The notes under the pieces were generated by a model. It was given only the letters and a program-made list of their open reading frames with translations. It searched no databases and was not told the DNA's origin. Source: Deinococcales bacterium (GTDB lineage Bacteria > Deinococcota > Deinococci > Deinococcales > JAAFIG01). From it: a stretch of 64,000 bases of DNA. The stretch spans positions 96,001 to 160,000 of the forward strand of contig JANNVX010000018.1 of the NCBI GenBank assembly GCA_031414595.1. Reading direction: 5' to 3'. This document shows, piece by piece, positions 4,310 to 62,097 of this stretch. A program made the translations under genes and the position numbers. Numbering within the stretch: position 1 is the stretch's first letter; each line of letters begins with the position of its first letter.

Positions 4310-4367
4310 GATTTTACAATAACGCTTGTGGTTAAGACAGGTGTCTCGAGTGAGCAAATCCAAGCTC

Positions 4368-4431
4368 TTGATTTTTCAAATAAATAGTGCTACATTCTGA
4401 GTTAGTTCACAATCTAAATTAACTAACTCAG
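4368..4431 (+). promoter_or_regulatory. Sigma-70-type promoter followed by ROK-repressor operator
   Basis: TTGATT(4368)-17-TACATT(4391) with TG extension; inverted repeat CTGAGTTAGTT-N13-AACTAACTCAG at 4397-4431, resembling XylR/ROK operators. Confidence 0.7.
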
Positions 4432-4440
4432 GAGACTGGC

Positions 4441-5637: not shown

Positions 5638-5741
5638 ACCTTAAGACTCAAAACCGATTCTCGAGTACGAACCGTATCGTAACTCGCTTTAGAAAATACG
5701 CCCCGAAACCCTTCGCCCTCATTCTATTAGGAGACTCAATC

Positions 5742-7007: not shown

Positions 7008-7017
7008 ACCGAACCTA

Positions 7018-7041
7018 GGGCGGTGTCAAAGCCGCCCATTT
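7018..7041 (+). terminator. Intercistronic stem-loop (mRNA stabiliser or partial terminator)
   Basis: GGGCGGT-GTCAAA-GCCGCCC-ATTT directly after the SBP stop. Confidence 0.5.
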
Positions 7042-7063
7042 ATGCTCGAGAACGGAGGTTGTC

Positions 7064-7948
7064 ATGCAGGGAACGTTGCGCGATTGGAAAGCCGTTCTGG
7101 TTTTTGTCGGTCCAGCTTTGCTGATTTACACCATCATTTTACTTGTTCCGATTGTCTGGTCGGTTGGTTATACTTTTTTTTCAGGTTCACCGTTGGCTGG
7201 CTTTAAGTTTGTGGGTTTGGATAATTATGGACAAATTTGGCAGGATCAAAAATTCAAGGAAGCCCTTTGGTTTGGTACAAAATATGCGGCGGTGGTCAGT
7301 CTTGGACAGGTAATTTTAGGTTTGTTACTGGCGATGCTGTATATGTTTTATTTGCGTAAATCCTCGGTTTTGATTCGCACCCTCGTTTTTTTGCCTGTGG
7401 TCTTACCAACTGTAGCAAGCGCCCAGATGTTCGCTAAACTTTTTGCGATAGCACCGCAGTACGGGCTGGTCAATAGCCTGCTACAAGGTCTTGGTCTCGA
7501 GTCTTGGGTGCAGGGCTTTCTTGGACAGGCAAACAGTGCTTTTTGGGTGATTGCCGCCATGGACATTTGGAAAGCCATGGGCTTTTATGCAGTGCTGCTG
7601 TTTGCTGGTTTGGTTGAAATCCCCGAAGAAGTCTTAGAGGCAGCCCGAATAGATGGAGCGCAGGGTTGGACGTTATCAAGGTTTGTGGTCATGCCGTTGC
7701 TGATGCCAATTATCATCTCGAGCCTGATTTTTAGCTTAAATGGCACACTCAAGGTTTTTGATTCCATTCTGGCTTTAACGGGTGGCGGACCGGGTACAAC
7801 CACCATGCCCTTAACGCTATACATGTATAAAGTCTCGTTTACCTATAACGATTATGGGTACGGCTCTACTGTGGCATTGACCTTGGCGGTACAGTGCGTA
7901 CTGGTGACGCTGTTGGTACTCTGGCGGTCAAGAAAAGGACAAAGCTAA
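7064..7948 (+). CDS. Sugar ABC transporter permease (MalF-like)
   Basis: FVGLDNY; EAARIDGA EAA loop. Confidence 0.92.
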   Translation: MQGTLRDWKAVLVFVGPALLIYTIILLVPIVWSVGYTFFSGSPLAGFKFVGLDNYGQIWQDQKFKEALWFGTKYAAVVSLGQVILGLLLAMLYMFYLRKSSVLIRTLVFLPVVLPTVASAQMFAKLFAIAPQYGLVNSLLQGLGLESWVQGFLGQANSAFWVIAAMDIWKAMGFYAVLLFAGLVEIPEEVLEAARIDGAQGWTLSRFVVMPLLMPIIISSLIFSLNGTLKVFDSILALTGGGPGTTTMPLTLYMYKVSFTYNDYGYGSTVALTLAVQCVLVTLLVLWRSRKGQS

Positions 7949-8802
7949 TGCGAAACTCGAGACAAAAAAGTATTTTACAACACCTGAGCAATATCCCCGT
8001 TCTTGCTTTGGTCTTGCTGGCGGTGTTGGTCAGTGTTTATCCTGTCTTTTGGATTTTTATCTCGAGCCTTAAAGGGGTCGAAGAATTTTCAGGAAGCCCG
8101 ATGTGGGCGTTACCCAAGGAATTGCACTGGGAAAACTATGCTAGAGCTTGGACAGAAGGGAAAATGAGTACCTATTTTTTGAATAGTATCCTCACGGTTG
8201 TGCCTTCCTTAACTTTGGTGGTGCTGCTTGGGGTCAGTGCAGCTTTTGGGATTGAAATTATGCAATGGCGTTTTGCCAACCTGACCACATTGGTTTTTTT
8301 GACCGCAATTATGGTCCCACTGCAAATTGTGATTCTGCCGCTTTTTACGATGTACTTTGCGACCCGTTTACTGAATACCCATCTGGCATTGATTATCACG
8401 TATGTAGCCTTTGGCTTGCCGCTGGTGGTGTTTTTTATGACTGGCTACTTTAAGACCTTCTCGAGAGAAGTGATTGAAGCGGCAATTATGGACGGCGCGA
8501 GTATTTACCAAGTCTTTTTTAAGATTGCCCTGCCAATGGTGATGAATGCTGTGGTGACGGTGGCATTGGTACAATTCTTTTTTATGTGGAATGACTTGTT
8601 GGTTTCCTTAACCTTTACCACCAGCCCAGATATGCGAACCGTTCAATCGGGCTTACTGAATTTTGTCGGGCAATACGGGCAGCGAGAATGGGGTCCAACC
8701 TTTGCTTCGGTGGCAATTACGGTTGCTCCAACTGTGTTGGTTTACTTATTCCTCAATCAATTGGTGATGAAAGGACTTGCTTCTGGCGCGGTGAAAGGAT
8801 GA
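7948..8802 (+). CDS. Sugar ABC transporter permease (MalG-like)
   Basis: EAAIMDGA loop, WND, C-terminal GAVKG; TAATG coupling at 7946-7950. Confidence 0.92.
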   Translation: MRNSRQKSILQHLSNIPVLALVLLAVLVSVYPVFWIFISSLKGVEEFSGSPMWALPKELHWENYARAWTEGKMSTYFLNSILTVVPSLTLVVLLGVSAAFGIEIMQWRFANLTTLVFLTAIMVPLQIVILPLFTMYFATRLLNTHLALIITYVAFGLPLVVFFMTGYFKTFSREVIEAAIMDGASIYQVFFKIALPMVMNAVVTVALVQFFFMWNDLLVSLTFTTSPDMRTVQSGLLNFVGQYGQREWGPTFASVAITVAPTVLVYLFLNQLVMKGLASGAVKG

Positions 8803-11342
8803 ATAGCGACTGGCAGAACTCGAGTTTAGTTGCTGAACAAGTCAAAATTTTACTCGAGCAGTTGAGTTTAGAAGATAAAATCCGTTTGGTCAGTGGGCAA
8901 TTTATCCGTGGTAGTACAGTAAAACCACTATCTGACTTACCACTGTTTAATATGGCAGATGGTCCTGCGGGTATTCGCACCTCACCCGATGCCACCACTG
9001 CCACGAGTAGCACTGCCTTACCCGCACCGATTGCTTTAGCTGCCACTTGGAGTACAGAGTTAGCCACCAAGTACGGTCATCTACTTGGACTCGAGGCGAA
9101 ACTGACTGGGCATAATGTGCTGCTTGGTCCTGCCATAGATTTGGCTCGAACGCCACTGGCTGGACGTACTTTTGAATCGTTTGGCGAAGACCCCTTGTTG
9201 CAGTCGCGCATGGTTGTCCCCGAGGTACAAGCCATTCAAGCCCATGGGGTTCAAGCCAGCTTAAAGCACTTTATTGTCAATAACCAAGAGCATGACCGCA
9301 ATTCTATAAACGTGATGGTAGACCAACGCAGCCTCTTTGAAATCTATTTACCGCCGTTTGAAGCCGCAATTCGCCTTGGTGGGGCTGCTTCGGTGATGGC
9401 AAGTTACAACCGTGTGAATGATCAATTTGCTTGTGATAACCAAGATATTCTCTCAAAGATTCTGCGTGACCAACTTGGTTTTCGTGGCTGGGTGATCAGT
9501 GACTTTCTGGCGAATCACAGCACTGCTAAATCCGCCAATGCTGGGCTGGATTGGGAATTGACCATGCCACATGCCAGTCAATGGCGCTCCCATTTACTCG
9601 AGGCAGTGAAAAACGCAGAAGTTTCACTCGAGACCTTAAATGAAATGGTTCGCAGAATTTTACGTCCAACCATTGGTTTGGGAATGCTCGAGTCTGGGTT
9701 TGAGCAATTGATTTTAACCCATGACCATGCGGCGGTGGCGCTCGAGATTGCTGAACAAAGCATGGTGTTACTTAAAAACGTCAATCACTTATTACCGCTT
9801 TCGACTGACAAAATTAAAAGTATTGCGGTGATTGGTGCAGATGCCGATACCGTTTCGGCGGCGGGTGGCGGCAGCGCTTTGGTGCAACCTCTGCGTGAAA
9901 TTTCAGTGCTTGATGGCATTAAAACTCGGGTTGGCTCGGGGGTAAAGGTTCTGTACGCGGCTGGCACAGATGCCATTGGTGCGGGGGTACTGCTGCATGG
10001 TGACAACTGCATTCCATCGTCAGTCCTCAAGCAAGCCGATGGAAGACAGGGTTTACTGGCACAATACTGGAATAACCTCGATTCTACGGGTGAACCCGTT
10101 ATCACTCGGATTGAACCGAATATCGAATTTATTCGTGGTTTTTTTGATTTTCCCGGTTTTCAAATCAGTGCCGCTTCGCATCACCTCGAGTTTTTTCCAA
10201 TGGCGGTTGAACCTATTTTTTCGGCTTGCTGGACTGGGTTTTTCATACCTCCTATGACTGGAGAGTATGCCCTGTCCATCACTTGTGCGGGTCGAGCAAA
10301 ATTATTTATTGACCAAGAGCGATTACTCGAGGTACAAAGTCAACTTAAACTTCATGCTGACGCATTGCACTGGGACGGCTCTGGAGCAGCTTTTCAGAGT
10401 CAAACCATGCAGCTTATTGCTGGGCAAAAATACGCAATTCGCCTCGAGTACGCTTCAGACTTCCCTGAACTTTGTATGCTTTACGGCGCTCAGTTACGGC
10501 TTGGTTGGCAGCCGCCGAAAGGCACACTCACACCAAAAATGCAGCAAGCTGTAGACTTGGCTCGAGTTTCGGATGTGGCAGTTGTGGTGGTGCGTACTTT
10601 TGAATCCGAAGGGCTGGACAGACCAAATTTGCGGCTACCATCAGGGCAGAATGAACTGATTGAGGCTGTCAGTCGTGTCAATCCAAAAACCATTGTGGTG
10701 CTGATGACTGGCTCGAGTGTAGATGTTAGTAATTGGGAAAGCACTGTCCCAGCTATTCTCGAGGCTTGGTATGCAGGGCAAGAACAGGGTAGCGCTGTGG
10801 CTCGGATTTTATTTGGTGATGTTGTCCCATCGGGTAAATTACCAATTACTTTTCCACGTTCCCAAGACCAAATGCCGCCGCTCGAGTATCCGGGAGTTGA
10901 TGGTCAAATAACCTACGCCGAAGGCTTAAACATTGGCTATCGAGGTTACGACCAACACAACATTGAACCGATGTACCCGTTTGGTTTTGGTTTGTCTTAC
11001 ACCAGTTTTTCGTACAGCAACCTAGAAGTTTTGCAAGACACACTTGTCACCATTCAGTTTGACCTCGAGAACACTGGAGCTTATACGGGTATCGAAATTG
11101 CCCAGCTTTACCTCGAGATGCCAGATAACCAAGCACCAAAGAAACTGGCTGGTTTAGCTCGAGTTTGCTTACAGCCACAAGAAAAGCAAACCGTTTGCAT
11201 TTGCCTAGATGCCGATTCGCTCGAGCGCCCATTTTCGATTTGGGATGATGGTTGGAAACGTGTTTTCGGGCAGTACCGCATTTTGGTCGGTGCGTCGTCA
11301 AGGGATATTCTTTTAGAAGGCATCTTAGTGGTGAGTCCATGA
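8799..11342 (+). CDS. GH3 beta-glucosidase with PA14 and Fn3-like domains
   Basis: ADGPAGIR, GRTFESFGEDP, KHF, VISDF nucleophile region, ESEGLDR, YPFGFGLSY; ATGA coupling at 8799. Confidence 0.92.
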   Translation: MNSDWQNSSLVAEQVKILLEQLSLEDKIRLVSGQFIRGSTVKPLSDLPLFNMADGPAGIRTSPDATTATSSTALPAPIALAATWSTELATKYGHLLGLEAKLTGHNVLLGPAIDLARTPLAGRTFESFGEDPLLQSRMVVPEVQAIQAHGVQASLKHFIVNNQEHDRNSINVMVDQRSLFEIYLPPFEAAIRLGGAASVMASYNRVNDQFACDNQDILSKILRDQLGFRGWVISDFLANHSTAKSANAGLDWELTMPHASQWRSHLLEAVKNAEVSLETLNEMVRRILRPTIGLGMLESGFEQLILTHDHAAVALEIAEQSMVLLKNVNHLLPLSTDKIKSIAVIGADADTVSAAGGGSALVQPLREISVLDGIKTRVGSGVKVLYAAGTDAIGAGVLLHGDNCIPSSVLKQADGRQGLLAQYWNNLDSTGEPVITRIEPNIEFIRGFFDFPGFQISAASHHLEFFPMAVEPIFSACWTGFFIPPMTGEYALSITCAGRAKLFIDQERLLEVQSQLKLHADALHWDGSGAAFQSQTMQLIAGQKYAIRLEYASDFPELCMLYGAQLRLGWQPPKGTLTPKMQQAVDLARVSDVAVVVVRTFESEGLDRPNLRLPSGQNELIEAVSRVNPKTIVVLMTGSSVDVSNWESTVPAILEAWYAGQEQGSAVARILFGDVVPSGKLPITFPRSQDQMPPLEYPGVDGQITYAEGLNIGYRGYDQHNIEPMYPFGFGLSYTSFSYSNLEVLQDTLVTIQFDLENTGAYTGIEIAQLYLEMPDNQAPKKLAGLARVCLQPQEKQTVCICLDADSLERPFSIWDDGWKRVFGQYRILVGASSRDILLEGILVVSP

Positions 11343-36196: not shown

Positions 36197-38488
36197 TCAT
36201 TCAAGTAAATCGGTTAATTGCCGAGGGTTGACATCAATCCGTACCCGCACACCACCTTCACGGTAGCTTCTAGCAGGTTCTAGCAGTTGGGTTAGGCGTT
36301 CTCGAGTATCAGCCCGTACAAGTAACTGATAAACAAAAAGCCCTTTGACTCGAGCAATTCCAGCCGGCGCAGGACCAAGCAGTTCTAAACTAACTGCGCC
36401 TCGGTCACGGATTAAGCCACCCAGTTTACTCGAGGCAATTTCGGCATCCCCAACCCGACGGGCAGAAACTTGAATCTGTGCCATTTGTGCAAAAGGCGGG
36501 TACAAAAAGGCTTGGCGGCTCTCGAGTTCACTCTTTGCAAAACTGCTGGAATCTTCAGAATTTTGAATTTGTTGAATAGCTTTATGTTGCCCATCAAAGG
36601 TTTGAATCAACAGTAACGGCGCTCGAGTCGGATGCCATTCTAAGAGTTGCCGCAAGAGCAAATGGAAGCGTTCACCCGCCCTAAAATCGGGACTCGAGTG
36701 CATTGTATCGGCAAAGGAAATAGCGATTAAAGCTAAGTTTGGCGGTGGCGGCAAGCCCAACACAGCCGTTGTACCAACAACAATTCCACTTTCGCCAGCG
36801 TAAATAGGAGTTAAGTCATCTTTGAATTCGCGGTCAAAACGAAACAGGTTGGTTTGCGGTAAAAAACCACGTAACTCACGGACAATCCATTCACTGCCAG
36901 GTCCTTTTGGGGACAGCACTGTCCCTTCACAATTGGGACAACGGGTTGGCGGAACGGTGCTGTAGCCACACTGATGACACTCGAGGGTTCGAGCCGCCGC
37001 ATGGAATTTAAGGGCGACATCACAATGCGGGCAGTACGGAATCCAAGCGCAGTCTTTGCAACGCAGCATCGCGCTGTAGCCACGGCGCGGCGCAATGATC
37101 ACAGCTTGACGACCTCGTTCAGCAATTTGGCGCAGCACCCGTTTTAAGTCAGTGGAAATCGGAAATGAATCCCGAGCAATTGGCATATTCGACATTGGTC
37201 CGGTCTCTGGGGCTTTTGGGGCGGCATTAAAATCCACGACATGGATTCGAGCCGTGGGTGGCGGTAAAACTACCCCGTCTAAGTCAAGGCTTTCGGTGGC
37301 GGGTACACTGCCAACAAATAAAACTCGAGCCTTGGCATGTTTGGCGCGGGTTAAAACTGCATCTGGGATAAAAACCCGAGAGCCACCATGAAGTTTCCAA
37401 GCATCGGATAATTCATCCTCGAGAATAATTAAAGCCAAATCTGGGAGTGGCGCAAACAACGCCATTGGCGTTCCAAACAAAATCGGGATTGTTCCAGTGG
37501 CGCAAAAGCGCCAAACCGCTTCGCGTTCCAGTGGACGCAAAGCCCCGTGCAGCATGGCACTTTTTGCCAGTTCGCCAAGTGCCTTGTATGCCCGCTCGAG
37601 TCGTACATGGTCTGGTGCGAGATACAGCACACAATGCCCATTTTTGACGGCTTTGAGGATTAAGGATTGTAAGACCGCGAAACGCTCACGGGGTTTTGCT
37701 CCATGTAAACGCGCAGTAGCCAATCCCTCGAGTTTTTGTGCTGCCGCCAGATGCACCGCTTTGACAATTGGTCGCTCAAAAGATTGCCCAAAATTCGGCA
37801 TGGTCAGAGGTAACGGCTCGAGTTCGCGCCTTGCCGCACCCTTCTCGAGTAACTTCGAGACCATGCTCGGGCTGACCCCAGCCTCCAGTCCCCAAGCCTT
37901 CAAGGTGTAAAAACCACCCGCTTCGCGCAGTACCTCGAGGGCTGCCGTTTGTTTATCGGTCAGGGGCAGGTCTGCGTTGGTGGCTTGAATAATTTCACGG
38001 CTTGGCAATTCTAAGCGCACATCCTCGAGTAACAAACCCTGTCCACGTAAAAAATCTAAGATACTTGGGTCAAGGGCTGTTGCATTTTGGCGCTGCTCGA
38101 GTAGTCGTGCTTGTTCTGGCAGGGTTTCTAAGTTTATTCCAGCCACCAATTGTACACGGTGACTAAAATTTGGCTCGAGACCAAAGGGCATAAAATCTTG
38201 ATAGACCAAACCATCAAAACTTAGGCTTTGTTGTGCCACAGCTAGAAGGGCAGCGCAAGCATCGGGCGTAAAAATTGGTTCAGTGTCCAGAACTGCAATC
38301 GTGTCTTTGATGCTTGTGGCACGGTCTAACGTGCCGTCTAAGACTGCTAGTACCACCCCGACCCTCGAGCCACCCTGCCACGGCACAAGCACCCGCTTAC
38401 CAAGACCAAGGTGCGGTTTGCCAATGGGTTGGAAATCATAGGCTGGAAGTGGCAATGCCACAGCCACGCGCCAACGAGGGTACTTCAT
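36197..38488 (-). CDS. priA: Primosomal protein N' with degenerate helicase motifs
   Basis: RVLVPW 3'-binding domain, RRGYS + four CxxC, PDFRAGER, YPPF, LGPAPA, IDVNP. Confidence 0.92.
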   Translation of the reverse strand: MKYPRWRVAVALPLPAYDFQPIGKPHLGLGKRVLVPWQGGSRVGVVLAVLDGTLDRATSIKDTIAVLDTEPIFTPDACAALLAVAQQSLSFDGLVYQDFMPFGLEPNFSHRVQLVAGINLETLPEQARLLEQRQNATALDPSILDFLRGQGLLLEDVRLELPSREIIQATNADLPLTDKQTAALEVLREAGGFYTLKAWGLEAGVSPSMVSKLLEKGAARRELEPLPLTMPNFGQSFERPIVKAVHLAAAQKLEGLATARLHGAKPRERFAVLQSLILKAVKNGHCVLYLAPDHVRLERAYKALGELAKSAMLHGALRPLEREAVWRFCATGTIPILFGTPMALFAPLPDLALIILEDELSDAWKLHGGSRVFIPDAVLTRAKHAKARVLFVGSVPATESLDLDGVVLPPPTARIHVVDFNAAPKAPETGPMSNMPIARDSFPISTDLKRVLRQIAERGRQAVIIAPRRGYSAMLRCKDCAWIPYCPHCDVALKFHAAARTLECHQCGYSTVPPTRCPNCEGTVLSPKGPGSEWIVRELRGFLPQTNLFRFDREFKDDLTPIYAGESGIVVGTTAVLGLPPPPNLALIAISFADTMHSSPDFRAGERFHLLLRQLLEWHPTRAPLLLIQTFDGQHKAIQQIQNSEDSSSFAKSELESRQAFLYPPFAQMAQIQVSARRVGDAEIASSKLGGLIRDRGAVSLELLGPAPAGIARVKGLFVYQLLVRADTRERLTQLLEPARSYREGGVRVRIDVNPRQLTDLLE

Positions 38489-38754
38489 CTTTTTCGATAC
38501 GTGCGTTTGCTTCGACGCTCAATACCAATAATCCACATTTTATGACTTTCCACGCCAATATAAAAAATAATTCGATCTGGAGGAACTTTTAATCGCAAAT
38601 ACCCAGAATTTTGAACTGTTTCAATATCCCCAGCTTGATGGCTAACGTACATCAGAATTTTCTCGAGTAAACGTGATTGTTGTTTTTTAGTAAAGGTTTT
38701 CTCGAATAACAGTTGAACCTCATCTGAATCCCAGTCCCATCCTGTTACAATCAC
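38485..38754 (-). CDS. RelE/ParE-like toxin
   Basis: GDI...YLRLKVPPDRIIF...IIGIERR..Y pattern; basic; coupled to upstream small gene and to priA. Confidence 0.65.
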   Translation of the reverse strand: MIVTGWDWDSDEVQLLFEKTFTKKQQSRLLEKILMYVSHQAGDIETVQNSGYLRLKVPPDRIIFYIGVESHKMWIIGIERRSKRTYRKR

Positions 38755-39014
38755 AATCGTTTACCTCGTTGTTCAACAACATCAATCAACGATTGCTCAT
38801 AAGATGAGGCTGCTTCACCTTTTGGAATTTGAAGCATATAATCTTGCAATTTCACCTTGGCGCTCATCTTTTCTGAGACTGGAATTTCAGGGATTTCAAT
38901 TTCAGAAATGATTTTCTCGAGCGCTTGTTTACGACTTCTTAAACCATGTATTTTACGAAAAGCATCCAAGCGAACCATAGCCTTTTTGGAAACCACTTGT
39001 TCAAGCATTGTCAT
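38751..39014 (-). CDS. Putative antitoxin of the RelE-like toxin
   Basis: 87 aa, 4-nt overlap with toxin, leaderless promoter TAGAAT-6-ATG. Confidence 0.55.
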   Translation of the reverse strand: MTMLEQVVSKKAMVRLDAFRKIHGLRSRKQALEKIISEIEIPEIPVSEKMSAKVKLQDYMLQIPKGEAASSYEQSLIDVVEQRGKRL

Positions 39015-39074: not shown

Positions 39075-40682
39075 TTAGGGTGTGCGAATTGCAAAGTTCT
39101 GGGTTTTTGCTTCGCCTTTGCTCAGACTTAAACTGATGTTAGGAGGGCTGGTTCTGGTCAAATGCCCAACCAACCAAGCATCGTATTGGGTTAAACGCAC
39201 ATAAACTCCAGGCTTATTAGGTAAGGCACAACCGATACCAAAACTAACTACACCAACTTGACGTAAACCTGTTTGATTTGCCACATAAAGTGGTCCACCA
39301 CTGTCACCTTGGCAAGTGTCAATAAAACCAGCCGCAAAACCAGCGCAAAGCATGTTAGTGGTAATGGATAAACCAGACAATTGAGCAGCACAGGCAGCAT
39401 TTGAAATAATTGGCACACTGGATTCTTGAAGGTCACTTGGAAATACTTGTGGGTCATTGCCGTTAAGTGCGCCCCAACCGACAATTAAACCATTGACCCC
39501 TGCGGCGGCTAAGGCTGTTTCACTAGGCAAAATAGCGCGAATGGTGTCTTTGTTGCTTGGAAGCGATAATTTAAGCAAAGCAATATCATTATCATTCCCA
39601 AGGCTGTTGTAACTGGGGTGAACAATAATTTGTGCCACACTTAAGCGAGTTAATGGATTCTCGAGTTTAGTGAAACCGATGGCGACGTTAATACTTGATG
39701 CAGAACTCACAACATTGTTTTCTACGACGCAATGAGCGGCGGTTAGAACCCATTCGGGAGCAATCAGGCTGCCACCACAAAATTGTGCATTGAATGGATT
39801 CCCCACGCTCGATTGTAAAAGCGCCACGATTGAGTTCCACTTGCCAATTGGCGCAACTGTGCCACCAACAATTTGCGTGGTTAAACGACCAGAATTCACG
39901 CCTAGACTCGAGCCGTAGCCAACTGGCATTTCGTGACGCACACGGTAAGAACCAGCCTTAAGGCGGTTAAAACTATAATTGCCATTGGCATCGCTTAGGG
40001 TTTGGGCTTCGAGAGTATCCGGTGAACCATTGTTATTATCATCTAACCAAACAGTCCAACCACTTCGGGCGGTATCTAGCCCATCTTGACTAGAATTTTT
40101 GTTCTGGTCAAAGAACAATTTTCCACTGACCAGCGCACTTTTTGTAATTGCAATCAATGCAGTTTGGCTCTTACTTGGGTTTGCAAGACTGGTGGCAGTG
40201 ATTGTGACATTGGTGCTGCTGTCTGGCGGAGTGAACAAACCAACACTGGTAATTGTTCCAGCCGTGGCACTCCAAGTCACACCCGTATTACTCGAGCCTG
40301 TCACCAATGCACTTAAAGTCACGATTTCTGCTGACTCGAGACTTGCAGGTGCGGTGAAACTAATACTCACTTCGGGGGCGGCGGTCACATTAACGGTTGC
40401 CGAGCCAGATTTTGTGGCATCTTGTTTACTGGTCGCAGTAATGGTGACACTACCAAGTGTATTTGGGGCAGTGAACAAACCACTTTGCGAAATCGTGCCA
40501 GCACTGGCTGACCATTGCACCGAAAGGTCGCCTGTACCAACAACGGCTGCATTGAATTGCTGCGTTACAAATGCTTGTACACTGACAGTTAAAGGCGCAA
40601 TACTGATGCTTTGAATACTGTTAGGGGTAGGACAAGCCGTTAAAGCACAAGCCAACAAGACTATTAAAATTTTATTCGACAT
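39075..40682 (-). CDS. Lipoprotein: two Ig-like domains + SdrD-B-like domain + trypsin (S1) protease
   Basis: Lipobox LTAC; repeated V.WSA.AGTI...GLFT.P; IVGG, LTAAHC, DIALLKL, DTCQGDSGGP. Confidence 0.9.
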   Translation of the reverse strand: MSNKILIVLLACALTACPTPNSIQSISIAPLTVSVQAFVTQQFNAAVVGTGDLSVQWSASAGTISQSGLFTAPNTLGSVTITATSKQDATKSGSATVNVTAAPEVSISFTAPASLESAEIVTLSALVTGSSNTGVTWSATAGTITSVGLFTPPDSSTNVTITATSLANPSKSQTALIAITKSALVSGKLFFDQNKNSSQDGLDTARSGWTVWLDDNNNGSPDTLEAQTLSDANGNYSFNRLKAGSYRVRHEMPVGYGSSLGVNSGRLTTQIVGGTVAPIGKWNSIVALLQSSVGNPFNAQFCGGSLIAPEWVLTAAHCVVENNVVSSASSINVAIGFTKLENPLTRLSVAQIIVHPSYNSLGNDNDIALLKLSLPSNKDTIRAILPSETALAAAGVNGLIVGWGALNGNDPQVFPSDLQESSVPIISNAACAAQLSGLSITTNMLCAGFAAGFIDTCQGDSGGPLYVANQTGLRQVGVVSFGIGCALPNKPGVYVRLTQYDAWLVGHLTRTSPPNISLSLSKGEAKTQNFAIRTP

Positions 40683-40758
40683 AAGACAGCTTATCAAGTA
40701 AATTCAAAAATAGCCTGAAATCAAAAAAAATGCGGTTTCTAACGCAAAATACTCGAGC

Positions 40759-43700
40759 CTAATAAAATTCTTTGATTAAACTTCGCCAAGGTAATTCAGG
40801 CTCTAAAGGCATATCGTGACCAATAAAGGCTTTGGCTAATTTCTGAACATAAAAACCAGAACGTTTATCTTGCAATAAACTTATAGCAAGGCGCTTTGCA
40901 AACATCGGGTTTAGGTGTGCTAAAGGCTCGAGCAGGTTGGATACACATTCGTAGGCGTTTAGAGCAGAGACAATTTGAATACTTTCAAAAACAGTTTTTA
41001 AGTGCTGGGTGGGAATTGTTTTACCTATTTTTTGATCGATATTAACCTTAAGTACAGCAGCCCAAGCAATAAAGGCTCGAGCTTTGAAAGTGGTATTTTC
41101 AAGTAAGGCTTGGACTTTTTGGATTTGCTGTTCTTGCAAGTAGACTCGAGCCATGCTTGTAATTGTTTCTTCTTTGATTTCATTTAGGGCTAAGTCCATT
41201 GCTGTTTGGTATTGCTTTAAGGCTTTTGGCAATTCTCCAAGCTCAAAATAGACATGCCCAATTCGTAAAATGCAATGAGCAGCCCGTAGGGTATTGCCTG
41301 TGTGCTGACAAAGTGCAAGGTTATCCTGTCCTAGTTGTAAGGCTTCTTGGTATTGTCCAAGGGCGCGTAAAGTCTCTAGTTGACCGTTGCCAAGGGCTGT
41401 TAGCATTCGCTGGTCGCCCAAGTTACGGACTTCTTTGGTGCTTGTTTTGAGAATAGCCAGCGATTCTTGGTATTTACCTTGGAATTGTAAAGCTGTAGCG
41501 AGGTTATTTTGAACCGATTGTAAATTGCGTTGGTCACGAAGTTGAATTAGTAATTCCTCAGCTTCGAGCAATTCTTGTTCGGCGCGTGCGTACTCACCGT
41601 TTCGTCCTGCCAGTATTGCCGCATGAATTGGGATTAACGACATGACCCGAATATTAGCGCCGCTTCGAGCCGCTTCTAAGGCGCTTTGGGCTTCTTCAAG
41701 TTTCCCAAGGATAGCAAGCACATCACAAAGTTGTAAGTAACTTATGGATTGTTCAAATTCATCGGCGGTTTTGCTTAATTGCACGGCTTTTTCGGCAAAC
41801 TCAAGACCTTCTAAGGCTCGAGAAGTACGAGAAAAGAGCATTGCCAATTGACGTAAACGAATCAGGTTTTGTTCATTTGATAATAATTCTGGTTGTGCCA
41901 AAGCAAATTCGGATTCGGATTCTTTGAATAGCCCTAGATTGGCTTTGGCATGACCTCGTTGCAAAGCAAATTGTGCAGCTAATTCAGGTGGTAAATCTGA
42001 ATGAGGGAGTAAAGCCGATAATTCATTAAAACGATTGCACAGTACATGCAGTATTGTTAAGCCTTGAAGGGCAGAACTCAGCCTCTCAAATTGCTGGTTC
42101 TCGAGTGTCCAAGTCCAAGCAGCACGGGCATTGTGGTAAATCAAATCCACATGGCGTTTGGTCTCCAAGTAGGCTTCGAGGTCTTGAGTACGGTAACGTA
42201 TGGGCAGTGCTTGTAGCAACTCAAAGTAGTGTGTGGCATGAGCCTGACGGGTTTGCCCTAAGCGCTCAGGATTTTGTGCAGCTTGCTCGAGTACAAATTG
42301 CCGCAGTAGCGGATGTAACTCAAGTCGTGTCTCAGTTAAACGCAATAAAGAGCGGTCTGTCAGAGCAACAATCGCAGCGCGGCTTGCCCCACTGACGGCT
42401 CGTGCCGAAGCCAAAGTAAATTCGCCCACAAAAACCGCCAAGGAAACCAGAGTTTGTTGTTCTGCACCCCCAAGTAAACGCCATGAAGAATCAAAAACCG
42501 CTCGAACGCTATGATGTCGTGGATTGCGGTCTTTAACGGGTCGCTCGAGAAAATCTAAATCCAATTGAACTTCAGCAGCAATTTCTTCTAAGCTCATGTG
42601 CCGAATCCAAGAAGCTGCTAATTCTATGGCGAGTGGCGAACCTGCTAAGTGTTCGGTCAGAACCCCGATTTGCTGTTCAATTTTGGTATCTGGGTCAAAA
42701 CTGGCTTTGACCCTTATGGCACTTTGAATAAATAAAGTTTTAGCAGCTTCAAAACTCAAACCAGATAACTCGAGAATTTGTTCGCCTTGCAGTTGTAGCA
42801 CACTGCGCGAAGTCGCCAGCAGCTTAATTTTTGCGGCGGCGCTCAGCAAACGCTGCACCCAATGTCCAATCTCGGGCAGATGCTCTAAGTTATCAAGTAC
42901 CAACAAACAATGTTTATCGCGTAAATAATCAAATAAAACCGTTTCGGCTTGACTGTTTGGTGGGGTTAAACCCAGTGCCAACAAAACACTTTGGCTTGGG
43001 TCGTCGGTGCTGCTGATGTTTTCAAAAGAAACCCAATACGCACCATCCACAAAATTATTCTGCCAAGTCCAAGCCGCCTCGAGTGCCAAACGGGTTTTGC
43101 CATTGCCACCAATGCCCAGAATCGTCAGTAAACGCCAATCGGTATCTGCAAAAAAATCGTGTAGCACAGTCAGTTCGGCTTCGCGCCCGACCAGTGGCAC
43201 AGTTGGGGCTGGCAAGGGTGGGCGAATGGTTTTGACTGGGCTTGGTTTGGCTAAGTTGGCAATGATTTCTTTGGCTTCTGGGCTTGGTTCGGCTGCCAGT
43301 TCCTCGGCTAGAATTTGGCGGTAACGTTCAAACTGCTCTAAAGCCAAATGGTTTGCGCCTTGGGCGGCGTAATAGCCAATCAGACCAAGCTGGGCAATTT
43401 CGGAAGTTGGCTCGAGTTGTAAGTATTTTTTCCAAGCCAGTTCTGCGTGAGTCACATCCAAATTTGCCAGAGTTGCCAGAACTTGGGTTTGTAAACCAAG
43501 CAATTCTTGGCGATACGTCTCTGCCCAGTCCTCGTATAAATCTTCAGACATTGGCTGACCATCTATAAAATTGGCGGCTTCTAGGAGTTTGGCTGCGTCT
43601 TTATTGGCAATACCTTCTCGAGCCAATGCCATAAAATCGCTCACATCAACACTTAGTCCGCCGATTGGCTCGAGTCGCACCACCCCAGAGACCAGTTTTG

Positions 43701-43956
43701 GCGCAACCAAATCGCCCAAGGCTTTGCGTAAATTATATAGCGCGTTGTACAACTGCGCGGCGGCGGCTGTTGGGTCGAGGTCTGACCAAAGGTGTTCAAT
43801 TAAGCTATCTCGGGTTAGTGCATGGCTAGGCTCGAGGGCTAAGAGTTTTAATAAACTACGCACTTTACGGCGAGGCAGGCTTTTGATGGCTTGCGGTTCG
43901 CCATGTAAGCGAATGGCAAACTGACCCATCACAGTAATCGAAAGCGCCTCGCGCAT
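40759..43956 (-). CDS. AfsR/SARP-type regulator: wHTH-BTAD-NB-ARC-TPR
   Basis: LLKLLAL..LTRD.L...LW, LYNLRKAL, BTAD EPSPE, VGRE, Walker A GIGGNGKT, LVLDNLEH, ATSR, GSPLAIELAA, LHPLLRQF, TPRs. Confidence 0.9.
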   Translation of the reverse strand: MREALSITVMGQFAIRLHGEPQAIKSLPRRKVRSLLKLLALEPSHALTRDSLIEHLWSDLDPTAAAAQLYNALYNLRKALGDLVAPKLVSGVVRLEPIGGLSVDVSDFMALAREGIANKDAAKLLEAANFIDGQPMSEDLYEDWAETYRQELLGLQTQVLATLANLDVTHAELAWKKYLQLEPTSEIAQLGLIGYYAAQGANHLALEQFERYRQILAEELAAEPSPEAKEIIANLAKPSPVKTIRPPLPAPTVPLVGREAELTVLHDFFADTDWRLLTILGIGGNGKTRLALEAAWTWQNNFVDGAYWVSFENISSTDDPSQSVLLALGLTPPNSQAETVLFDYLRDKHCLLVLDNLEHLPEIGHWVQRLLSAAAKIKLLATSRSVLQLQGEQILELSGLSFEAAKTLFIQSAIRVKASFDPDTKIEQQIGVLTEHLAGSPLAIELAASWIRHMSLEEIAAEVQLDLDFLERPVKDRNPRHHSVRAVFDSSWRLLGGAEQQTLVSLAVFVGEFTLASARAVSGASRAAIVALTDRSLLRLTETRLELHPLLRQFVLEQAAQNPERLGQTRQAHATHYFELLQALPIRYRTQDLEAYLETKRHVDLIYHNARAAWTWTLENQQFERLSSALQGLTILHVLCNRFNELSALLPHSDLPPELAAQFALQRGHAKANLGLFKESESEFALAQPELLSNEQNLIRLRQLAMLFSRTSRALEGLEFAEKAVQLSKTADEFEQSISYLQLCDVLAILGKLEEAQSALEAARSGANIRVMSLIPIHAAILAGRNGEYARAEQELLEAEELLIQLRDQRNLQSVQNNLATALQFQGKYQESLAILKTSTKEVRNLGDQRMLTALGNGQLETLRALGQYQEALQLGQDNLALCQHTGNTLRAAHCILRIGHVYFELGELPKALKQYQTAMDLALNEIKEETITSMARVYLQEQQIQKVQALLENTTFKARAFIAWAAVLKVNIDQKIGKTIPTQHLKTVFESIQIVSALNAYECVSNLLEPLAHLNPMFAKRLAISLLQDKRSGFYVQKLAKAFIGHDMPLEPELPWRSLIKEFY

Positions 43957-43992
43957 TGTGTTTACTCTAGCAAATTTTGGTGTGCTGGGTTG

Positions 43993-44033
43993 CAAAAGCC
44001 AAACCCACAGGAAAAATCTTTGTGGGTTTGGCT
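43993..44033 (-). terminator. Intrinsic terminator after the globin gene
   Basis: 13-bp inverted repeat AGCCAAACCCACA/TGTGGGTTTGGCT ending in a short T-run on the minus strand. Confidence 0.7.
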
Positions 44034-44045
44034 CGAGCGGTGTGT

Positions 44046-44456
44046 CTAAGCTGGCTTCATGGTTTGCGCCAAAAGCCTATAAGCGGCTATCCATGCCTCA
44101 CGCAGTTCTGGGGTGAAATCCTCGCCCATTGTGGCTTCAAGTGTCCAAATCAGGGCTTCGCCAACCGCGTTGTAATCTGTGTTTTTGACTTTGTATTCGG
44201 TTTTGTGCTTTGCCCCAAGTTCTTCTATTCCTTGCACATCTGGGCGCTCGAGATTCTGGACAATTGAACGCAGCATATCCAGTAGTTTCTGGCTTTGCTT
44301 GACCATATCGCCTTGGAACATCTGCTTAAAATGCGGTTGAAGGTCAAACAACCTCTGATAAAAAATCTCACCAAAGAACGTTTCAAAACTGGCTTCGCCG
44401 CTTGGGATGAGTTGGGCAAAACTGTTTTGCACCAATTGGATTTGAGTTGCGTTCAT
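44046..44456 (-). CDS. Single-domain globin (flavohaemoglobin-like globin domain)
   Basis: IQLVQNSF, FYQRLF (TyrB10), MF (CD1), Q (E7), LGAKH (proximal His), VGEALIWTL, AW..AY. Confidence 0.9.
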   Translation of the reverse strand: MNATQIQLVQNSFAQLIPSGEASFETFFGEIFYQRLFDLQPHFKQMFQGDMVKQSQKLLDMLRSIVQNLERPDVQGIEELGAKHKTEYKVKNTDYNAVGEALIWTLEATMGEDFTPELREAWIAAYRLLAQTMKPA

Positions 44457-44506
44457 CAGCTTACCTTCTTGCCAACATAATGGTTGCCTACCGACCGAGG
44501 TGGAGT

Positions 44507-46501
44507 TCAAAGGGCGAAATTGGTGTTATCCACCGCCGATGGTGCGGTTGCGCCTGTTGTGGTTGCCCCGTCACCAAGTTGCCCACTGGCATCTGCCCCC
44601 CAACAATACGCCATTCCAGCCGTAGTCACACCGCAGCTATGCAAACTCCCGGCTGTCAGACTCGAGTATGTGTATCCATTCGCCACCGCCGATGGTGCGG
44701 TTGCGCCTGTGGTGGTTGAAGCATCGCCAAGTTGCCCATCGGCATCTGCCCCCCAGCAATAGGCTTGTCCATTGGTGGTCAGAGCGCAGTTGTGGTCAGC
44801 GCCAGCCTCAATGCTCGAGAATGTAAGCCCACCATCCACCGCCGATGGCGCAACAAAAATTCCAGTCAGCGCACCATTGCCAAGTTGTCCACTGAAATCA
44901 TTTCCCCAGCAATACGCCGTTCCAGCCGTGGTCACACCGCAACTATGCGTACCGCCTGCTGAAATACTCGAAAAGCTGTAGCCACCATCCACAGGCGAAG
45001 GTGTGGTGCTGGTAGAACCCGTGGCTGTAAGCGCATTATCGCCAAGTTGCCCAGCATTGTCACGTCCCCAACAATAGGCTTTTCCAACAAAGTTCAGACC
45101 GCAAGTATGGGATAGACCAGCCGAAATACCCGAGAATGTATGTCCGCCAGACACAAGTGAAGGCGTGGTGCTGGTAGAACCCGTGGCTGTGAGTGTATCA
45201 TCGCCAAGTTGCCCAAATTCATCAAACCCCCAGCAATACGCCGCTCCAGCCGTGGTCACAGCGCAAGTATGCTCTCTTGCAGCCGAAATACTCGAGAATG
45301 TAAGTCCGCCAGACACAGGCGAAGGTGTGGTGGTGCTGTTGATTGCGCCATTGCCAAGTTGTCCTCTGAAATCATCTCCCCAGCAATACGCCGTTCCAGC
45401 CGTGGTCAGAGCGCAGGTATGGCGTAAACCAGCTGAAATACTCGAGAATGTATGTCCGCCAGACACAGGCGAAGGTGTGGTGGTGCTGATGATTGTGCCA
45501 TCGCCAAGTTGCCCAAAAGTACCTTCTCCCCAGCAATACGCCTGTCCAGTGCTACCGATACCACAGCTATGCGAATTTCCAGCGCTGATTCGTCCTATTC
45601 CCAAGGCATGAATACTGGTGTTCAGCGTCGAGGTAAAGACATCATTTACGACATCAGAAGCCAAACTGGTTGTGCCACGATTCAGACCAAACTGCATCAA
45701 ACGGCTGGCGCTCACACCTGTGCCACGGGTTTCGGCAGCCGTGATGCTCTCGCTGGGAAAAACACTGCGGGTTACTCGAGACACCGATTCATCAAATACC
45801 AAAAAGTTCATCACAAAGCCATACGCCGAAGCAGATTTGGGAACACGCATCGCCACTTTTAAGACACCTGCTCCATTCACTGCAATCTGTCTGGAGTTAG
45901 CGACACATGCAGTTGTACAACGGGCATTAAATCCATAATTAAGGAGTGTATCTCCTGCCGTCATCGCACCGGCTGTGGTGGCAGCACTGGTTGCAGCCGC
46001 AACCTCGGCACTGGTGAAGGCTTGGAAACCACCAAACGTATCTATTGCCAGATTGCTCAAAACAGGTGATACCGGTATGGCTAACTTGGCTTGGCGGGTT
46101 TGCTCGGCTTGATTGCTGATTCCACCCCAATTGGCGATGCTTTTGATAGCGGTGCCGCCCAAATTTCCACTTTTGGCAAGGGCATAAAGGGTGAGGTTTT
46201 GAAACACTTGACTGCTCGAGGTGTTGGTTATTGCAAAAGAAGCAACCAAATAGGTGTACGCCGAATTGGTGGGCGTAATCACTTGGGTGATACCAGTACC
46301 AAGGGTTAAATCGGTTTCTCGAAAGGTCACGGCTTGGGTTCTCAGTGGCTGTTCGAGTTTGGCGCTGGCATAACCATCTTGAGAGAAACGTACCTCGAGT
46401 ACCCCCAAAACTTCAGACGCATTGTTTGGGATTGAGGTTTGCTGACAAGCGGCTGCCCCAAGGCATAATGCACTTAGAAATAGAACCTGACGGTAATTCA
46501 T
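44507..46501 (-). CDS. Lipoprotein with uncharacterised N-terminal domain and 7 RCC1 repeats
   Basis: Lipobox AAAC; seven ISAG..H.C..T..G.AYCWG....GQLG repeats. Confidence 0.9.
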   Translation of the reverse strand: MNYRQVLFLSALCLGAAACQQTSIPNNASEVLGVLEVRFSQDGYASAKLEQPLRTQAVTFRETDLTLGTGITQVITPTNSAYTYLVASFAITNTSSSQVFQNLTLYALAKSGNLGGTAIKSIANWGGISNQAEQTRQAKLAIPVSPVLSNLAIDTFGGFQAFTSAEVAAATSAATTAGAMTAGDTLLNYGFNARCTTACVANSRQIAVNGAGVLKVAMRVPKSASAYGFVMNFLVFDESVSRVTRSVFPSESITAAETRGTGVSASRLMQFGLNRGTTSLASDVVNDVFTSTLNTSIHALGIGRISAGNSHSCGIGSTGQAYCWGEGTFGQLGDGTIISTTTPSPVSGGHTFSSISAGLRHTCALTTAGTAYCWGDDFRGQLGNGAINSTTTPSPVSGGLTFSSISAAREHTCAVTTAGAAYCWGFDEFGQLGDDTLTATGSTSTTPSLVSGGHTFSGISAGLSHTCGLNFVGKAYCWGRDNAGQLGDNALTATGSTSTTPSPVDGGYSFSSISAGGTHSCGVTTAGTAYCWGNDFSGQLGNGALTGIFVAPSAVDGGLTFSSIEAGADHNCALTTNGQAYCWGADADGQLGDASTTTGATAPSAVANGYTYSSLTAGSLHSCGVTTAGMAYCWGADASGQLGDGATTTGATAPSAVDNTNFAL
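44530..45600 (-). repeat. Intragenic ~150-160 bp tandem repeats (RCC1 blades)
   Basis: For example CCAGACACAGGCGAAGGTGTGGTGGTGCTG at 45309 and 45459. Confidence 0.85.
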
Positions 46502-46644
46502 TTGTTGCTACCTCCTTGTTCGATGATGGGGTCATCAAACAAACCATTGATTGGAATTGAAAGCCCAGTCAGCAAGGTGTAACTGGCGTGCTGCTCGAGA
46601 CAAGGGGCTTGGTAGGGCTTGCGTTTAATATCTATCGGTTTCAT
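46498..46644 (-). CDS. 48-aa peptide with lasso/RiPP-leader-like YxxPxL...TG motif
   Basis: AAGGA RBS; MKPIDIKRKPYQAPCLEQHASYTLLTGLSIPI...; ATGA overlap with the RCC1 lipoprotein. Confidence 0.7.
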   Translation of the reverse strand: MKPIDIKRKPYQAPCLEQHASYTLLTGLSIPINGLFDDPIIEQGGSNK

Positions 46645-46686
46645 CGGTTTTTCCTTTTTATAACTGAATGAGGTCTTCAAGTTTGC

Positions 46687-47073
46687 TTATTCAAACCAAT
46701 TGGTAACAATGAACTGGCTTAAAAGCGGGTTTGCACTCAGCCAAGCCTCCTTGAGTTCTGTCTTAAAATCTTCCCCGAGCGTCATCTCGAGCGTCCAAAG
46801 CAGTGCCGAAGCAACGGCGGTTTTTTTGAGGTCATTCGGCGGGATGTGATGCAGTAAAAACGCGGCGGGTAGCTCGAGATACCCAATGATTAAACGAAGT
46901 AAGTTTAGTAATTGCTGGGCTTGAAGGCTTATATCTGTACCAACAACTTCGGGTTGAAGATTCCGTAAACGCTGATAAAAAATTTCGCCAAACAGCACCT
47001 CGAGTGCTTCGTCTCCAATTGGCACAAGTTGCACAAAACTTTCTTGAACCAATTGGATTTGAGCCTGTGTCAT
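46687..47073 (-). CDS. Divergent or degenerate globin paralogue
   Basis: QIQLVQESF, FGEIFYQRL and ALLWTLEMTLGEDF are shared with 44046-44456; CD and F regions shortened. Confidence 0.75.
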   Translation of the reverse strand: MTQAQIQLVQESFVQLVPIGDEALEVLFGEIFYQRLRNLQPEVVGTDISLQAQQLLNLLRLIIGYLELPAAFLLHHIPPNDLKKTAVASALLWTLEMTLGEDFKTELKEAWLSANPLLSQFIVTNWFE

Positions 47074-47123
47074 ACAATCCTTCGATAACCAAGGGGCAGA
47101 GAATTCTGCGCCGCTTAGAATTT

Positions 47124-47777
47124 TTAGTCGGGGATGTTAAACCGTGTCTTGATTTGTTCATAAGGCATGGATTTCCAATCAATTTTTGCCCCTGCTCCTG
47201 CCAAAGCCACAACCCCAGGAATAATCACATACCGATACTCGAGACCTTGCGGAAAAGTAACCATCAGAGGTTGACCCGGGTAGGCTTCGGCAACACCACT
47301 ATCAAAGCGGCAAGTTTTGAAAGTATGTCGAAAAACTTTGAGTTTACCTACTGTGTCAAGGGTGTAATGGATTTGGTTGGTTGCGCCACCTGCATCTGAG
47401 ATATAAGGTAAGGCGAATGGTCCAATACCGCCAACTCGGAAATATACGACAATCATGGATTTGTTAATCACATCGGCAGTAAGGTCTGGTCTGGTTATTG
47501 ATCGTAAACGTATACAAGTTCCGTCGGAAGTAATATTTGAAGCCGATGCGGTTGGGTCAGAAAACCAAGGGCTGTAACGAACATCACTTGGACCCGCAGG
47601 ACCTGTTGGACCCGTTGGACCTGTTGGACCCGTTGGACCTGTTTCGCCCGTTGGACCTTGTGGACCTGTTACACCAATCGGACCCGTGTCACCTTTTGGA
47701 CCCGGAGTGCTATTACAAGAAACCATACCGCCAATTAAACTTGCCGAAATGAGTGCTAACGCAAAGAACTTTTTCAT
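47124..47777 (-). CDS. Collagen-like lipoprotein
   Basis: AAGGAG RBS, lipobox MVSC, about 13 Gly-X-Y triplets (GPTGPT), then YSPW...YRYVIIPG domain. Confidence 0.85.
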
Positions 47778-47960
47778 ATTTTACTCCTTGGTGTTGAGCT
47801 TTAGGGCATCAACTGAAAATAGACTTAGACTTCTACCGAAACTGAAATTCCTAACCAGTGGTTATGCACTACATTGGGCGCGGGGCTTTGTTCATAACCA
47901 CTCCTTAAGTTCGTTATTGCTGTGTACTCGAGCCTTGGGTCTTGCTTGCTCTTGAGAGAC

Positions 47961-48020
47961 AGTATGCAAAACAACCCCTCTACAAAATCTCTACACGGTT
48001 TTTGGGCGTGTAGAGATTTT
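47961..48020 (-). promoter_or_regulatory. Putative SARP-activated promoter/operator
   Basis: Minus strand TGTAGAG-N4-TGTAGAG-N11-CATACT; plus perfect 14-bp inverted repeat 47984-47997/48007-48020. Confidence 0.6.
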
Positions 48021-48230: not shown

Positions 48231-48290
48231 ATGCAAAATGCCTTGATTATTGTAGTGGTCGTAGCCCTAACCTCGGGGGTCGCGGCGTAG
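48231..48290 (+). CDS. ilvB leader peptide MQNALIIVVVVALTSGVAA
   Basis: Run of Leu/Ile/Val codons just downstream of TTGACA(48192)...TGaTACTCT promoter; not in the ORF track. Confidence 0.85.
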   Translation: MQNALIIVVVVALTSGVAA

Positions 48291-48338
48291 TATCAGTTTG
48301 AAGCCAAGCGACCCCCGCCAAAAGCGGGGGTTTTTTTT
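48275..48338 (+). terminator. Attenuator: antiterminator/terminator pair
   Basis: GGGGGTCGC(48275-83) pairs with GCGACCCCC(48308-16), competing with ACCCCCGC-CAAAA-GCGGGGG-T8. Confidence 0.88.
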
Positions 48339-48395
48339 CACTCGAGAGAATAGTAAAAGTTAAAAGAAATTTTAAAAGTTCCACAGGAGAAAATC

Positions 48396-62000: not shown

Positions 62001-62097
62001 TAGAAATGGCTCGCAGCCTGAAAAGTGACCGGATGGTCGCCTGCCGAAAGGATAGGAACGAGTCGCAAAAGAACCTCATAATAGGGGTTCTTTTTTT
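62001..62097 (+). ncRNA. Structured small RNA convergent on the DUF3800 gene (DUF3800-RNA-motif-like)
   Basis: Nested stems, GAAA tetraloop and terminator GAACCTC-ATAATA-GGGGTTC-T7; G-U pairs favour the + strand. Confidence 0.75.

Follow-up and report, generated by a model that had tools for sequence, protein, structure and literature searches.

What does an AfsR-like STAND regulator control when its gene sits among lipoprotein and globin genes? The question is raised by a locus in a 64,000-nucleotide stretch of a Deinococcales genome (contig JANNVX010000018.1, positions 96,001 to 160,000; G000:C18:96001-160000 in our numbering; to be referred to as the window). The genome itself (G000) comprises 4.49 Mb in 120 contigs. 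The locus contains seven open reading frames (ORFs), all on the minus strand and arranged head to tail, flanked by priA and ilvB. We give about an even chance to the reading that the STAND locally activates the lipoprotein and globin genes next to it and that one of the two globins (globin A) is co-regulated cargo. The locus would then be a strain-variable surface-protein island built around this activator. We prefer this reading because STANDs and peptide-lipoprotein modules recur as divergent pairs, the conserved globin-STAND pairs take the form of divergons, and the type of regulator beside the globin changes elsewhere (see below). The seven genes, in the order of transcription, are:

47124-47777, minus strand: collagen-repeat lipoprotein, 217 aa (Pfam Collagen, 5e-7)
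46687-47073, minus strand: globin B, a paralogue of globin A, 128 aa (matched to globin A by BLASTP)
46498-46644, minus strand: YxxPxLE peptide, 48 aa counted from ATG
44507-46501, minus strand: RCC1 lipoprotein, 664 aa (RCC1_2, 2e-56)
44046-44456, minus strand: globin A, 136 aa counted from ATG (Pfam Globin, 1e-14)
40759-43956, minus strand: AfsR-like STAND regulator, 1065 aa counted from ATG (Trans_reg_C, BTAD, NB-ARC and TPR)
39075-40697, minus strand: trypsin-type lipoprotein (Big_2, SdrD_B and Trypsin domains in Pfam)

This is the gene order and domain content given by the first-pass annotation of the window, and Pfam and NCBIfam agree with it; among the seven genes, all but globin B and the peptide match a family in these two collections. 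The intergenic gaps, from the collagen gene to the protease gene, are 50, 42, -4, 50, 89 (with a hairpin inside) and 61 nt. Lipobox cysteines were read by eye in all three lipoproteins (GMVS-C, GAAA-C and LTA-C). The collagen lipoprotein, a single-copy gene in G000, has 13 G-x-y triplets followed by a 150-residue C-terminal domain without a Pfam family; its match in the ESM Atlas ('Collagen family protein', score 0.91) is a lead only. The protease lipoprotein contains all of the TAAHC, DIALL and GDSGGP motifs of a trypsin-type serine protease.

The regulator starts with a putative OmpR-type winged helix-turn-helix (wHTH) domain (Trans_reg_C, E 1.1e-5; at 25.9 bits, just under the cut-off of 26.2). 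This is followed by a BTAD domain (PF03704, 30.1 bits, cut-off 22.1), an NB-ARC domain (PF00931, 35.8 bits, cut-off 23.5; the translation shows Walker A as GIGGNGKT and Walker B as LLVLDN), and C-terminal TPR_12 repeats in three stretches (49.5 bits). The best NCBIfam match is the AfsR equivalog model NF053617 (2e-19), but the score is 69 bits against a cut-off of 1430, and the regulator is therefore not AfsR itself. There are about 22 close STAND-like loci in G000, and about 34 on a broader count. The sensor part of the window regulator (residues 561-1078) has no match to a paralogue at E<1e-8, so that its TPR sensor domain is, by sequence, private. In its orthologue in G001 (L005, G001:C458) the NB-ARC domain is almost invariant and the TPR region is 59% identical, giving the gene a mosaic appearance. 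The regulator-protease gene pair is also kept in G001, with a protease that is 94.5% identical.

In PMC11301090, AfsR is described as having a SARP, NB-ARC/STAND and TPR architecture and as binding direct repeats over the -35 element. The window regulator has the same order of domains (putative wHTH, then BTAD, NB-ARC, TPR) as AfsR and the large SARPs of Streptomyces, and, like the cluster-situated SARPs, its gene lies inside the cluster that it presumably controls. Unlike AfsR, it belongs to a Deinococcales lineage and is one of roughly 22 to 34 paralogues per genome, and its neighbors are surface lipoproteins and globins rather than antibiotic pathways.

The peptide and the RCC1 lipoprotein belong to a large family of gene pairs. 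About 19 further sites in G000 match residues 1-290 of the lipoprotein, and nearly all of them are preceded by a small ORF that overlaps the start of the lipoprotein gene by 4 nt. Hidden Markov models (HMMs) built from the copies find 16 peptides and 21 lipoproteins with this N-terminal domain (N-domain) in G000, and 15 of the 16 peptides are directly upstream of an N-domain lipoprotein gene. The window pair is one copy of this module (peptide HMM, 6.8e-16; N-domain HMM, 8e-84; overlap, 4 nt). As the stop of the peptide gene overlaps the start of the RCC1 lipoprotein gene, the two are probably coupled in translation. The shared N-domain has about 270 residues (approximately 20-290 in the RCC1 lipoprotein) and is followed here by a seven-blade RCC1 propeller. 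Across the family, the C-terminal domains include RCC1, FG-GAP, S8 subtilase, EEP and NS nucleases, PKD, and SBBP/DUF5122 propellers. The AlphaFold2 model of the N-domain is a β-sandwich (pLDDT 80, pTM 0.83), for which Foldseek finds no match in the PDB at E<=0.001. In the VIA wide search, the model is similar to VP37 of white spot syndrome virus (Z 8.4, 118 residues aligned) and to the lipoprotein SadB (Z 5.4). Both were rejected as the family of the N-domain, and none is assigned, because such scores are common among β-sandwiches.

The peptide family is present in 15 of the 18 other genomes of the same taxonomic family and in none of 22 genomes from four other families of the order. On the sequences compared, the module is thus specific to the family. 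The canonical order of peptide, then lipoprotein, is seen at 28 of the 32 peptide loci of four better-assembled relatives. The peptide consensus consists of Y-x-x-P-x-L-E, 8 or 9 residues, T-G-[IV]-S-L-P-I-G-T and an acidic tail, and Tyr11, Pro14 and Leu16 are invariant in 13 of 13 aligned copies; the window copy follows the consensus as far as the Gly and then diverges. The peptides have no match in Pfam or NCBIfam and no signal peptide by eye. A shorter variant (K-P-Y-x-K-P-S-L-E...G-S-F) is found at L025:10192-10374 (G003) and L026:1025-1282 (G001). There it lies between an FG-GAP N-domain lipoprotein gene and a globin gene, downstream and not upstream of the lipoprotein.

The window peptide had been described as leader-like at first sight, and this is borne out by its motif: YxxPxL is the RRE-binding motif described for leaders of lasso and linear polyphosphorylated peptides (LPPs) by Popov et al. 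2026 (PMC13381572). As in those precursors, the motif is N-terminal, and G000 has an RRE and a weakly HprK-like gene elsewhere in the genome. In contrast to those systems, there is no cyclase, B2 protease, SipW-type peptidase or kinase in the window locus, and the precursor-like genes are each coupled in translation to the gene of a lipoprotein. In Pfam searches, no biosynthetic genes for a peptide made by the ribosome and modified after translation (RiPP), whether RRE, protease, cyclase or kinase, were found among the seven genes or their flanks. A lasso peptide was considered and rejected, since there is no acidic residue at core position 7-9 to support a ring and no cyclase. The RRE is on contig C75 of G000. 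It is of the PqqD type (9e-16), lies 1.7 kb from a module and is divergent from a STAND; the gene after it encodes a 310-residue protein with weak ScmC/HprK-like matches (1.7e-4 and 0.04). In this region (L037, G000:C75:62000-79000; positions 3066-10777), the NB-ARC STAND gene is divergent from the RRE and 310-residue genes, downstream of which come an AAA-ATPase/PD-(D/E)XK gene and then the peptide-lipoprotein module.

STANDs are located beside these modules more often than chance allows. In G000, 4 of the 21 N-domain lipoprotein genes are within 1 kb of a STAND gene (1.11 expected under the null, P=0.022) and 7 of the 21 are within 5 kb (2.18 expected, P=0.0034); these P values are generous, as tandem modules are not independent. 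One of these genomic copies, the module on contig C39, is 309 nt from a STAND. In the relatives, a STAND is present within 7 kb at 7 of the 32 peptide loci, and in 5 of these pairs the two genes diverge and are under 1 kb apart. Overall, a fifth to a third of the modules have an NB-ARC STAND of the same type beside them.

The same proximity can be read in another way. A matured YxxPxLE peptide, modified through an RRE, or its complex with the lipoprotein could be the ligand of the STAND TPR domain, with the globins as passengers. TPR domains commonly bind peptides, and in receptors of the RRNPP type a TPR regulator is encoded next to a small peptide gene. Here too, a TPR-bearing transcription factor is found beside a small conserved peptide gene, often divergently: the two are divergent neighbors at 5 of the 32 loci in relatives and also on contigs C49 and C88 of G000. 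Both the C-termini of the peptides and the sensor domains of the STANDs are hypervariable, and the RRE and 310-residue genes of C75 are close to both a STAND and a module. Unlike in the RRNPP systems, however, the receptor would be a STAND ATPase with a SARP head, and the peptide carries no export signal by inspection. Moreover, most modules have no STAND nearby, and the window copy is off the family consensus and under relaxed constraint. We consider a peptide ligand improbable.

Of the two globins, globin A has the features of a working haem protein. Its match to PF00042 (55.2 bits, cut-off 22) is clear, and the closest solved sequence is the globin domain of a globin-Roadblock/LC7 fusion (PDB 3wfw, E 3e-21), followed by the 'hemoglobin-like flavoprotein' chains 3s1i and 3ubc (1e-14). 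Tyr33, Phe47, Gln54 and His84 of its haem pocket, which we take to be Tyr B10, Phe CD1, Gln E7 and His F8 by the usual helix labels, are in columns that are invariant or at least 90% conserved in an alignment of 72 rows. Globin A is most likely a functional cytoplasmic haem protein of a subfamily associated with nitric oxide (NO) and nitrite. Globin B shares 47% identity with globin A (BLASTP, 9e-30) and has no Pfam match at E<=0.01. It had been noted as degenerate, which holds up on comparison: Phe CD1 is replaced, and an eight-residue gap spans the F helix. A His-His pair in globin B corresponds to Gln-Arg in its orthologue in G005, a second genome of the same genus that was used for the comparison of synteny and of nonsynonymous and synonymous substitution (dN/dS). 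Globin B is best explained as a haem-less relic of a local duplication.

These two are the only globin matches in G000. Both are single-domain ORFs (136 and 128 residues) that end in stop codons, and neither is a globin-coupled sensor, having no fused transmitter. Globin A is in the same length class as the solved relatives. In comparison with 3wfw, globin A is free-standing, without a fused signalling domain, and globin B is without the F helix and Phe CD1. A quick tree places the globins of the Deinococcales in a single clade (support 99), with globins A and B outside it on a long branch; either fast evolution or transfer may account for this position.

The whole locus is syntenic in G005, and it is absent next to ilvB in all four of the other congeners examined (G003, G006, G007 and G002). 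It is tightly packed and strain-variable. Between G000 and G005, the genes flanking the small genes have dS values of 0.07-0.12 and dN/dS ratios of 0.09-0.18. For globin A (L022:9750-10166 in G005), dN/dS is 0.086 and dS is 0.82, the mark of an old allele under strong purifying selection. As dS is about 0.08 on both sides, this suggests an allelic replacement or recombination confined to globin A. The ratios are higher for globin B (0.51) and the peptide (0.47).

These values, together with the absence from the four congeners, would also fit a variable region next to ilvB in which these genes have come together by chance, globin B and the peptide are decaying, and there is no functional unit at all. 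The tenfold higher dS of globin A points to mosaic recombination, and the abundance of STANDs and lipoproteins in G000 makes some adjacency expected. On the other hand, the genes are tightly spaced with a 4-nt overlap, synteny in G005 is complete, and the adjacency of STANDs and modules is enriched above the null. Furthermore, the orders globin-STAND and lipoprotein-peptide-globin recur independently in G003 and G001. We regard such a chance arrangement as rather unlikely.

The link between globin and STAND was followed in 80 globin loci from many phyla, obtained by a globin-alignment scan of GTDB species genomes. A BTAD or NB-ARC STAND is within 10 kb of the globin in 6 of the 80 (G005, G011, Deinococcus oregonensis, D. 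alpinitundrae and two Anaerolineales contigs), and none is within this distance in the remaining 74. In G011, the STAND is divergent from a 142-residue gene that is followed by the globin, and in D. oregonensis it is divergent from two small ORFs and then the globin. The two genes are in tandem in D. alpinitundrae, STAND first, with 278 nt between them. In G009, the STAND is divergent from an FAD oxidoreductase gene followed by the globin, and in G003 from a series of FG-GAP N-domain lipoprotein, peptide-like ORF, FAD oxidoreductase and globin. On the Anaerolineales contig L060, an HTH-NB-ARC-TPR protein is divergent from the globin. The adjacency is thus conserved in the Deinococcales, covering three genera of the same family as G000 and two Deinococcus species. 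With 12-25 BTAD genes per genome, a few per cent of genomes would show adjacency within 2 kb by chance.

The globin-linked regulators of the Deinococcales are mutual orthologues with a BTAD-AAA_16-TPR architecture (32-54% identity over most or all of the length). High-identity orthologues are present in G001, G003, G011 and G017, all of which have the globin; G009 has the globin and a regulator match of 41%. In G007, G008 and G016, the regulator orthologue is on very short contigs, with the gene cut at the contig end, and no globin was found. The remaining 11 genomes of the family, among them G000 and G005, have no high-identity orthologue, and their best matches are at most 42%. The regulator orthologue thus tracks the globin across the family. 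These proteins align with the window regulator in the SARP part only. The first-pass annotation had named a lack of conserved linkage in other genomes as grounds against its reading; such linkage does exist in the Deinococcales as an adjacency, but the regulators there are of a different clade.

In other phyla, the neighbors of the globin indicate nitrogen-oxide or redox chemistry. Across the 80 loci, the commonest families encoded no more than 3 kb from the globin are NirB-like or pyridine-nucleotide oxidoreductases (18 loci), multihaem cytochromes c (11), Tll0287-like proteins (9), sigma-54 PAS activators and cytochrome c (7 each), and PAS histidine kinases and STANDs (4 each). The type of local regulator changes by lineage, as expected if the globin is a regulated target. 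In G003 and G009, the gene directly upstream of the globin (L025:8090-9924 and L179:8639-10707) encodes an FAD-dependent oxidoreductase of the geranylgeranyl-reductase/halogenase-like superfamily, which may be the reductase partner of the globin.

The first-pass annotation had proposed a haem- or gas-linked signalling circuit at this locus, in which globin A, perhaps with globin B, would be a free-standing haem sensor of O2 or NO that is read by the TPR domain of the STAND and switches on the lipoprotein and protease genes. What stands of this is the recurrence of the globin-STAND adjacency, in three genera, two Deinococcus species and one Anaerolineales contig, with three types of STAND. A sensor would also be consistent with the co-occurrence of regulator orthologue and clade globin in G001, G003, G011 and G017 (and in G009 at 41%), with the strong purifying selection on globin A, and with the fusion of its 3wfw relative to Roadblock/LC7, by which the lineage was used for signalling at least once. 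A relationship of regulator and target explains the adjacency equally well, however. Elsewhere the globin adjoins nitrite and other reductases, cytochromes and unrelated types of regulator, and the FAD oxidoreductase in G003 and G009 suggests an enzymatic redox partner. Moreover, globins are not a general part of the modules: a globin is beside none of the 32 module loci in the relatives and beside 1 of the 16 copies in G000, and 31 of 32 paralogous STAND/module contexts are globin-free. Prediction of a complex between globin A (alignment of 72 rows) and the TPR region of the regulator (residues 590-1065, 3 rows) gave an ipSAE of 0.00 in two runs, which in the absence of controls counts neither for nor against a contact. 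A globin sensor at this locus is in our view unlikely. A wider proposal is that the Deinococcales, and perhaps some Chloroflexota, have a split 'globin + NLR' gas sensor, in which the TPRs of an NLR-like STAND transcription factor would detect the ligation or redox state of a separate single-domain globin, and that this has been rewired here to control surface lipoprotein and RiPP-like peptide modules; in a variant, the hypervariable YxxPxLE peptides would be cognate ligands of the STAND sensors, which are just as hypervariable. We hold this to be quite improbable.

Pairs of a regulator gene and a globin gene are well known, among them NsrR-hmp, NorR-norVW/hmp and NssR-cgb. The present pairs resemble these in having a globin of the flavohaemoglobin/single-domain lineage beside its presumed controller, often divergently. 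They differ in the controller, an NLR-like STAND ATPase with TPRs here and not a protein of the Rrf2, sigma-54 or Crp type. Literature searches gave no clear report among their top-ranked matches of a globin paired with a BTAD/NB-ARC/AfsR-type regulator.

With the STAND as a local activator, the preferred reading, the locus would be organized in two units. Unit 1 would contain the genes for the collagen lipoprotein, globin B, the peptide, the RCC1 lipoprotein and globin A, and would end at the strong hairpin that follows; unit 2 would contain the regulator and the trypsin-type lipoprotein. A signal would bind to the private TPR domain of the regulator, the NB-ARC ATPase would then switch on, and the wHTH/BTAD head would recruit RNA polymerase to the neighboring promoters, as AfsR does. 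Globin A would most likely come last among the cargo genes expressed from the regulated operon, as a target and not as a sensor. The sequences themselves show the gene content, the multiplicity of the module, the enrichment of STANDs beside modules, the conserved globin-STAND linkage in the Deinococcales and the pattern of selection, whereas operon structure, direction of regulation and signal are inferred.

Several observations weigh against this scheme. As the window regulator is not orthologous to the globin-linked regulators, the conserved linkage serves as an analogy, with no direct bearing on the window pair. The regulator gene is downstream of unit 1 and co-oriented with it, unlike the divergent paralogous cases. 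No STAND is near the module in 14 of 21 cases in G000 and in 25 of 32 in the relatives, and the proximity statistics overstate the significance, since related genomes are not independent samples. At the promoters of the locus, no direct-repeat box of the SARP type was identified. Finally, the relaxed dN/dS of the peptide and globin B indicates that parts of the unit may be decaying.

Two hairpins are located in the spacers of the locus:

43993-44032, minus strand: 14-bp stem (hairpin 43998-44032) with CUUUUG in the spacer from globin A to the regulator, probably an intrinsic terminator or attenuator
47984-48020, no strand assigned: perfect 14-nt inverted repeat that folds as a hairpin, with U-runs on both strands

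The first of these, called a terminator in the first-pass annotation, holds as a strong hairpin (-27.9 kcal/mol, z -6.6), although a simple terminator scan did not pick it up. The second had been called an operator. The perfect inverted repeat is present as described and folds at -21.9 kcal/mol (z -5.4), but, given the U-runs on its two strands, it may as well be a bidirectional terminator as an operator. It is kept in G005, which says little, as the entire spacer is 98% identical between the two genomes; intergenic identity is at this level in general, and conservation there is uninformative. Simple scans for promoters and terminators gave counts not above those in shuffled sequence, and Rfam at the gathering threshold finds no match in the locus or in the 618-nt spacer between ilvB and the collagen gene.

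The palindrome CTCGAG was considered as a SARP box. The 64 kb of the window contain 337 copies, where shuffled sequence gives an expectation of 7.6; they come at about one per 190 bp and lie in genes as well as in spacers. As the hexamer occurs genome-wide, it was rejected as a SARP box; it behaves as a highly iterated palindrome.

Three other features are found in the window. On the plus strand at 48274-48395, a GC-rich hairpin (GACCCCCGC...GCGGGGGTT) is followed by eight T, 60 nt before the start of ilvB, and may be a leader or attenuator. Between the protease gene and priA, at 38485-39014, there is a pair of minus-strand ORFs of 87 and 89 residues with a 4-nt overlap. The pair resembles a toxin-antitoxin pair, has no Pfam or NCBIfam match, and is 100% identical in G005, compared to 93-97% for its flanks. 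A DUF3800-IX RNA is matched in Rfam at 62008-62068 on the plus strand (39 bits; gathering score 36.8).

Current work on the STAND/NLR-like proteins of bacteria deals mostly with their role as phage sensors, and the signals of the AfsR-type versions are largely open. The pairing with globins and the separate pairing with peptide-lipoprotein modules provide two testable candidate inputs, or regulons, for such proteins outside Streptomyces. The leader-like peptide is not a one-off but a member of a large family-specific family, and no counterpart is known to have been described for its fixed link with surface lipoproteins. On the plainer reading, the locus would be a lineage-specific regulon that adds a new type of regulator to the known regulator-globin pairs.

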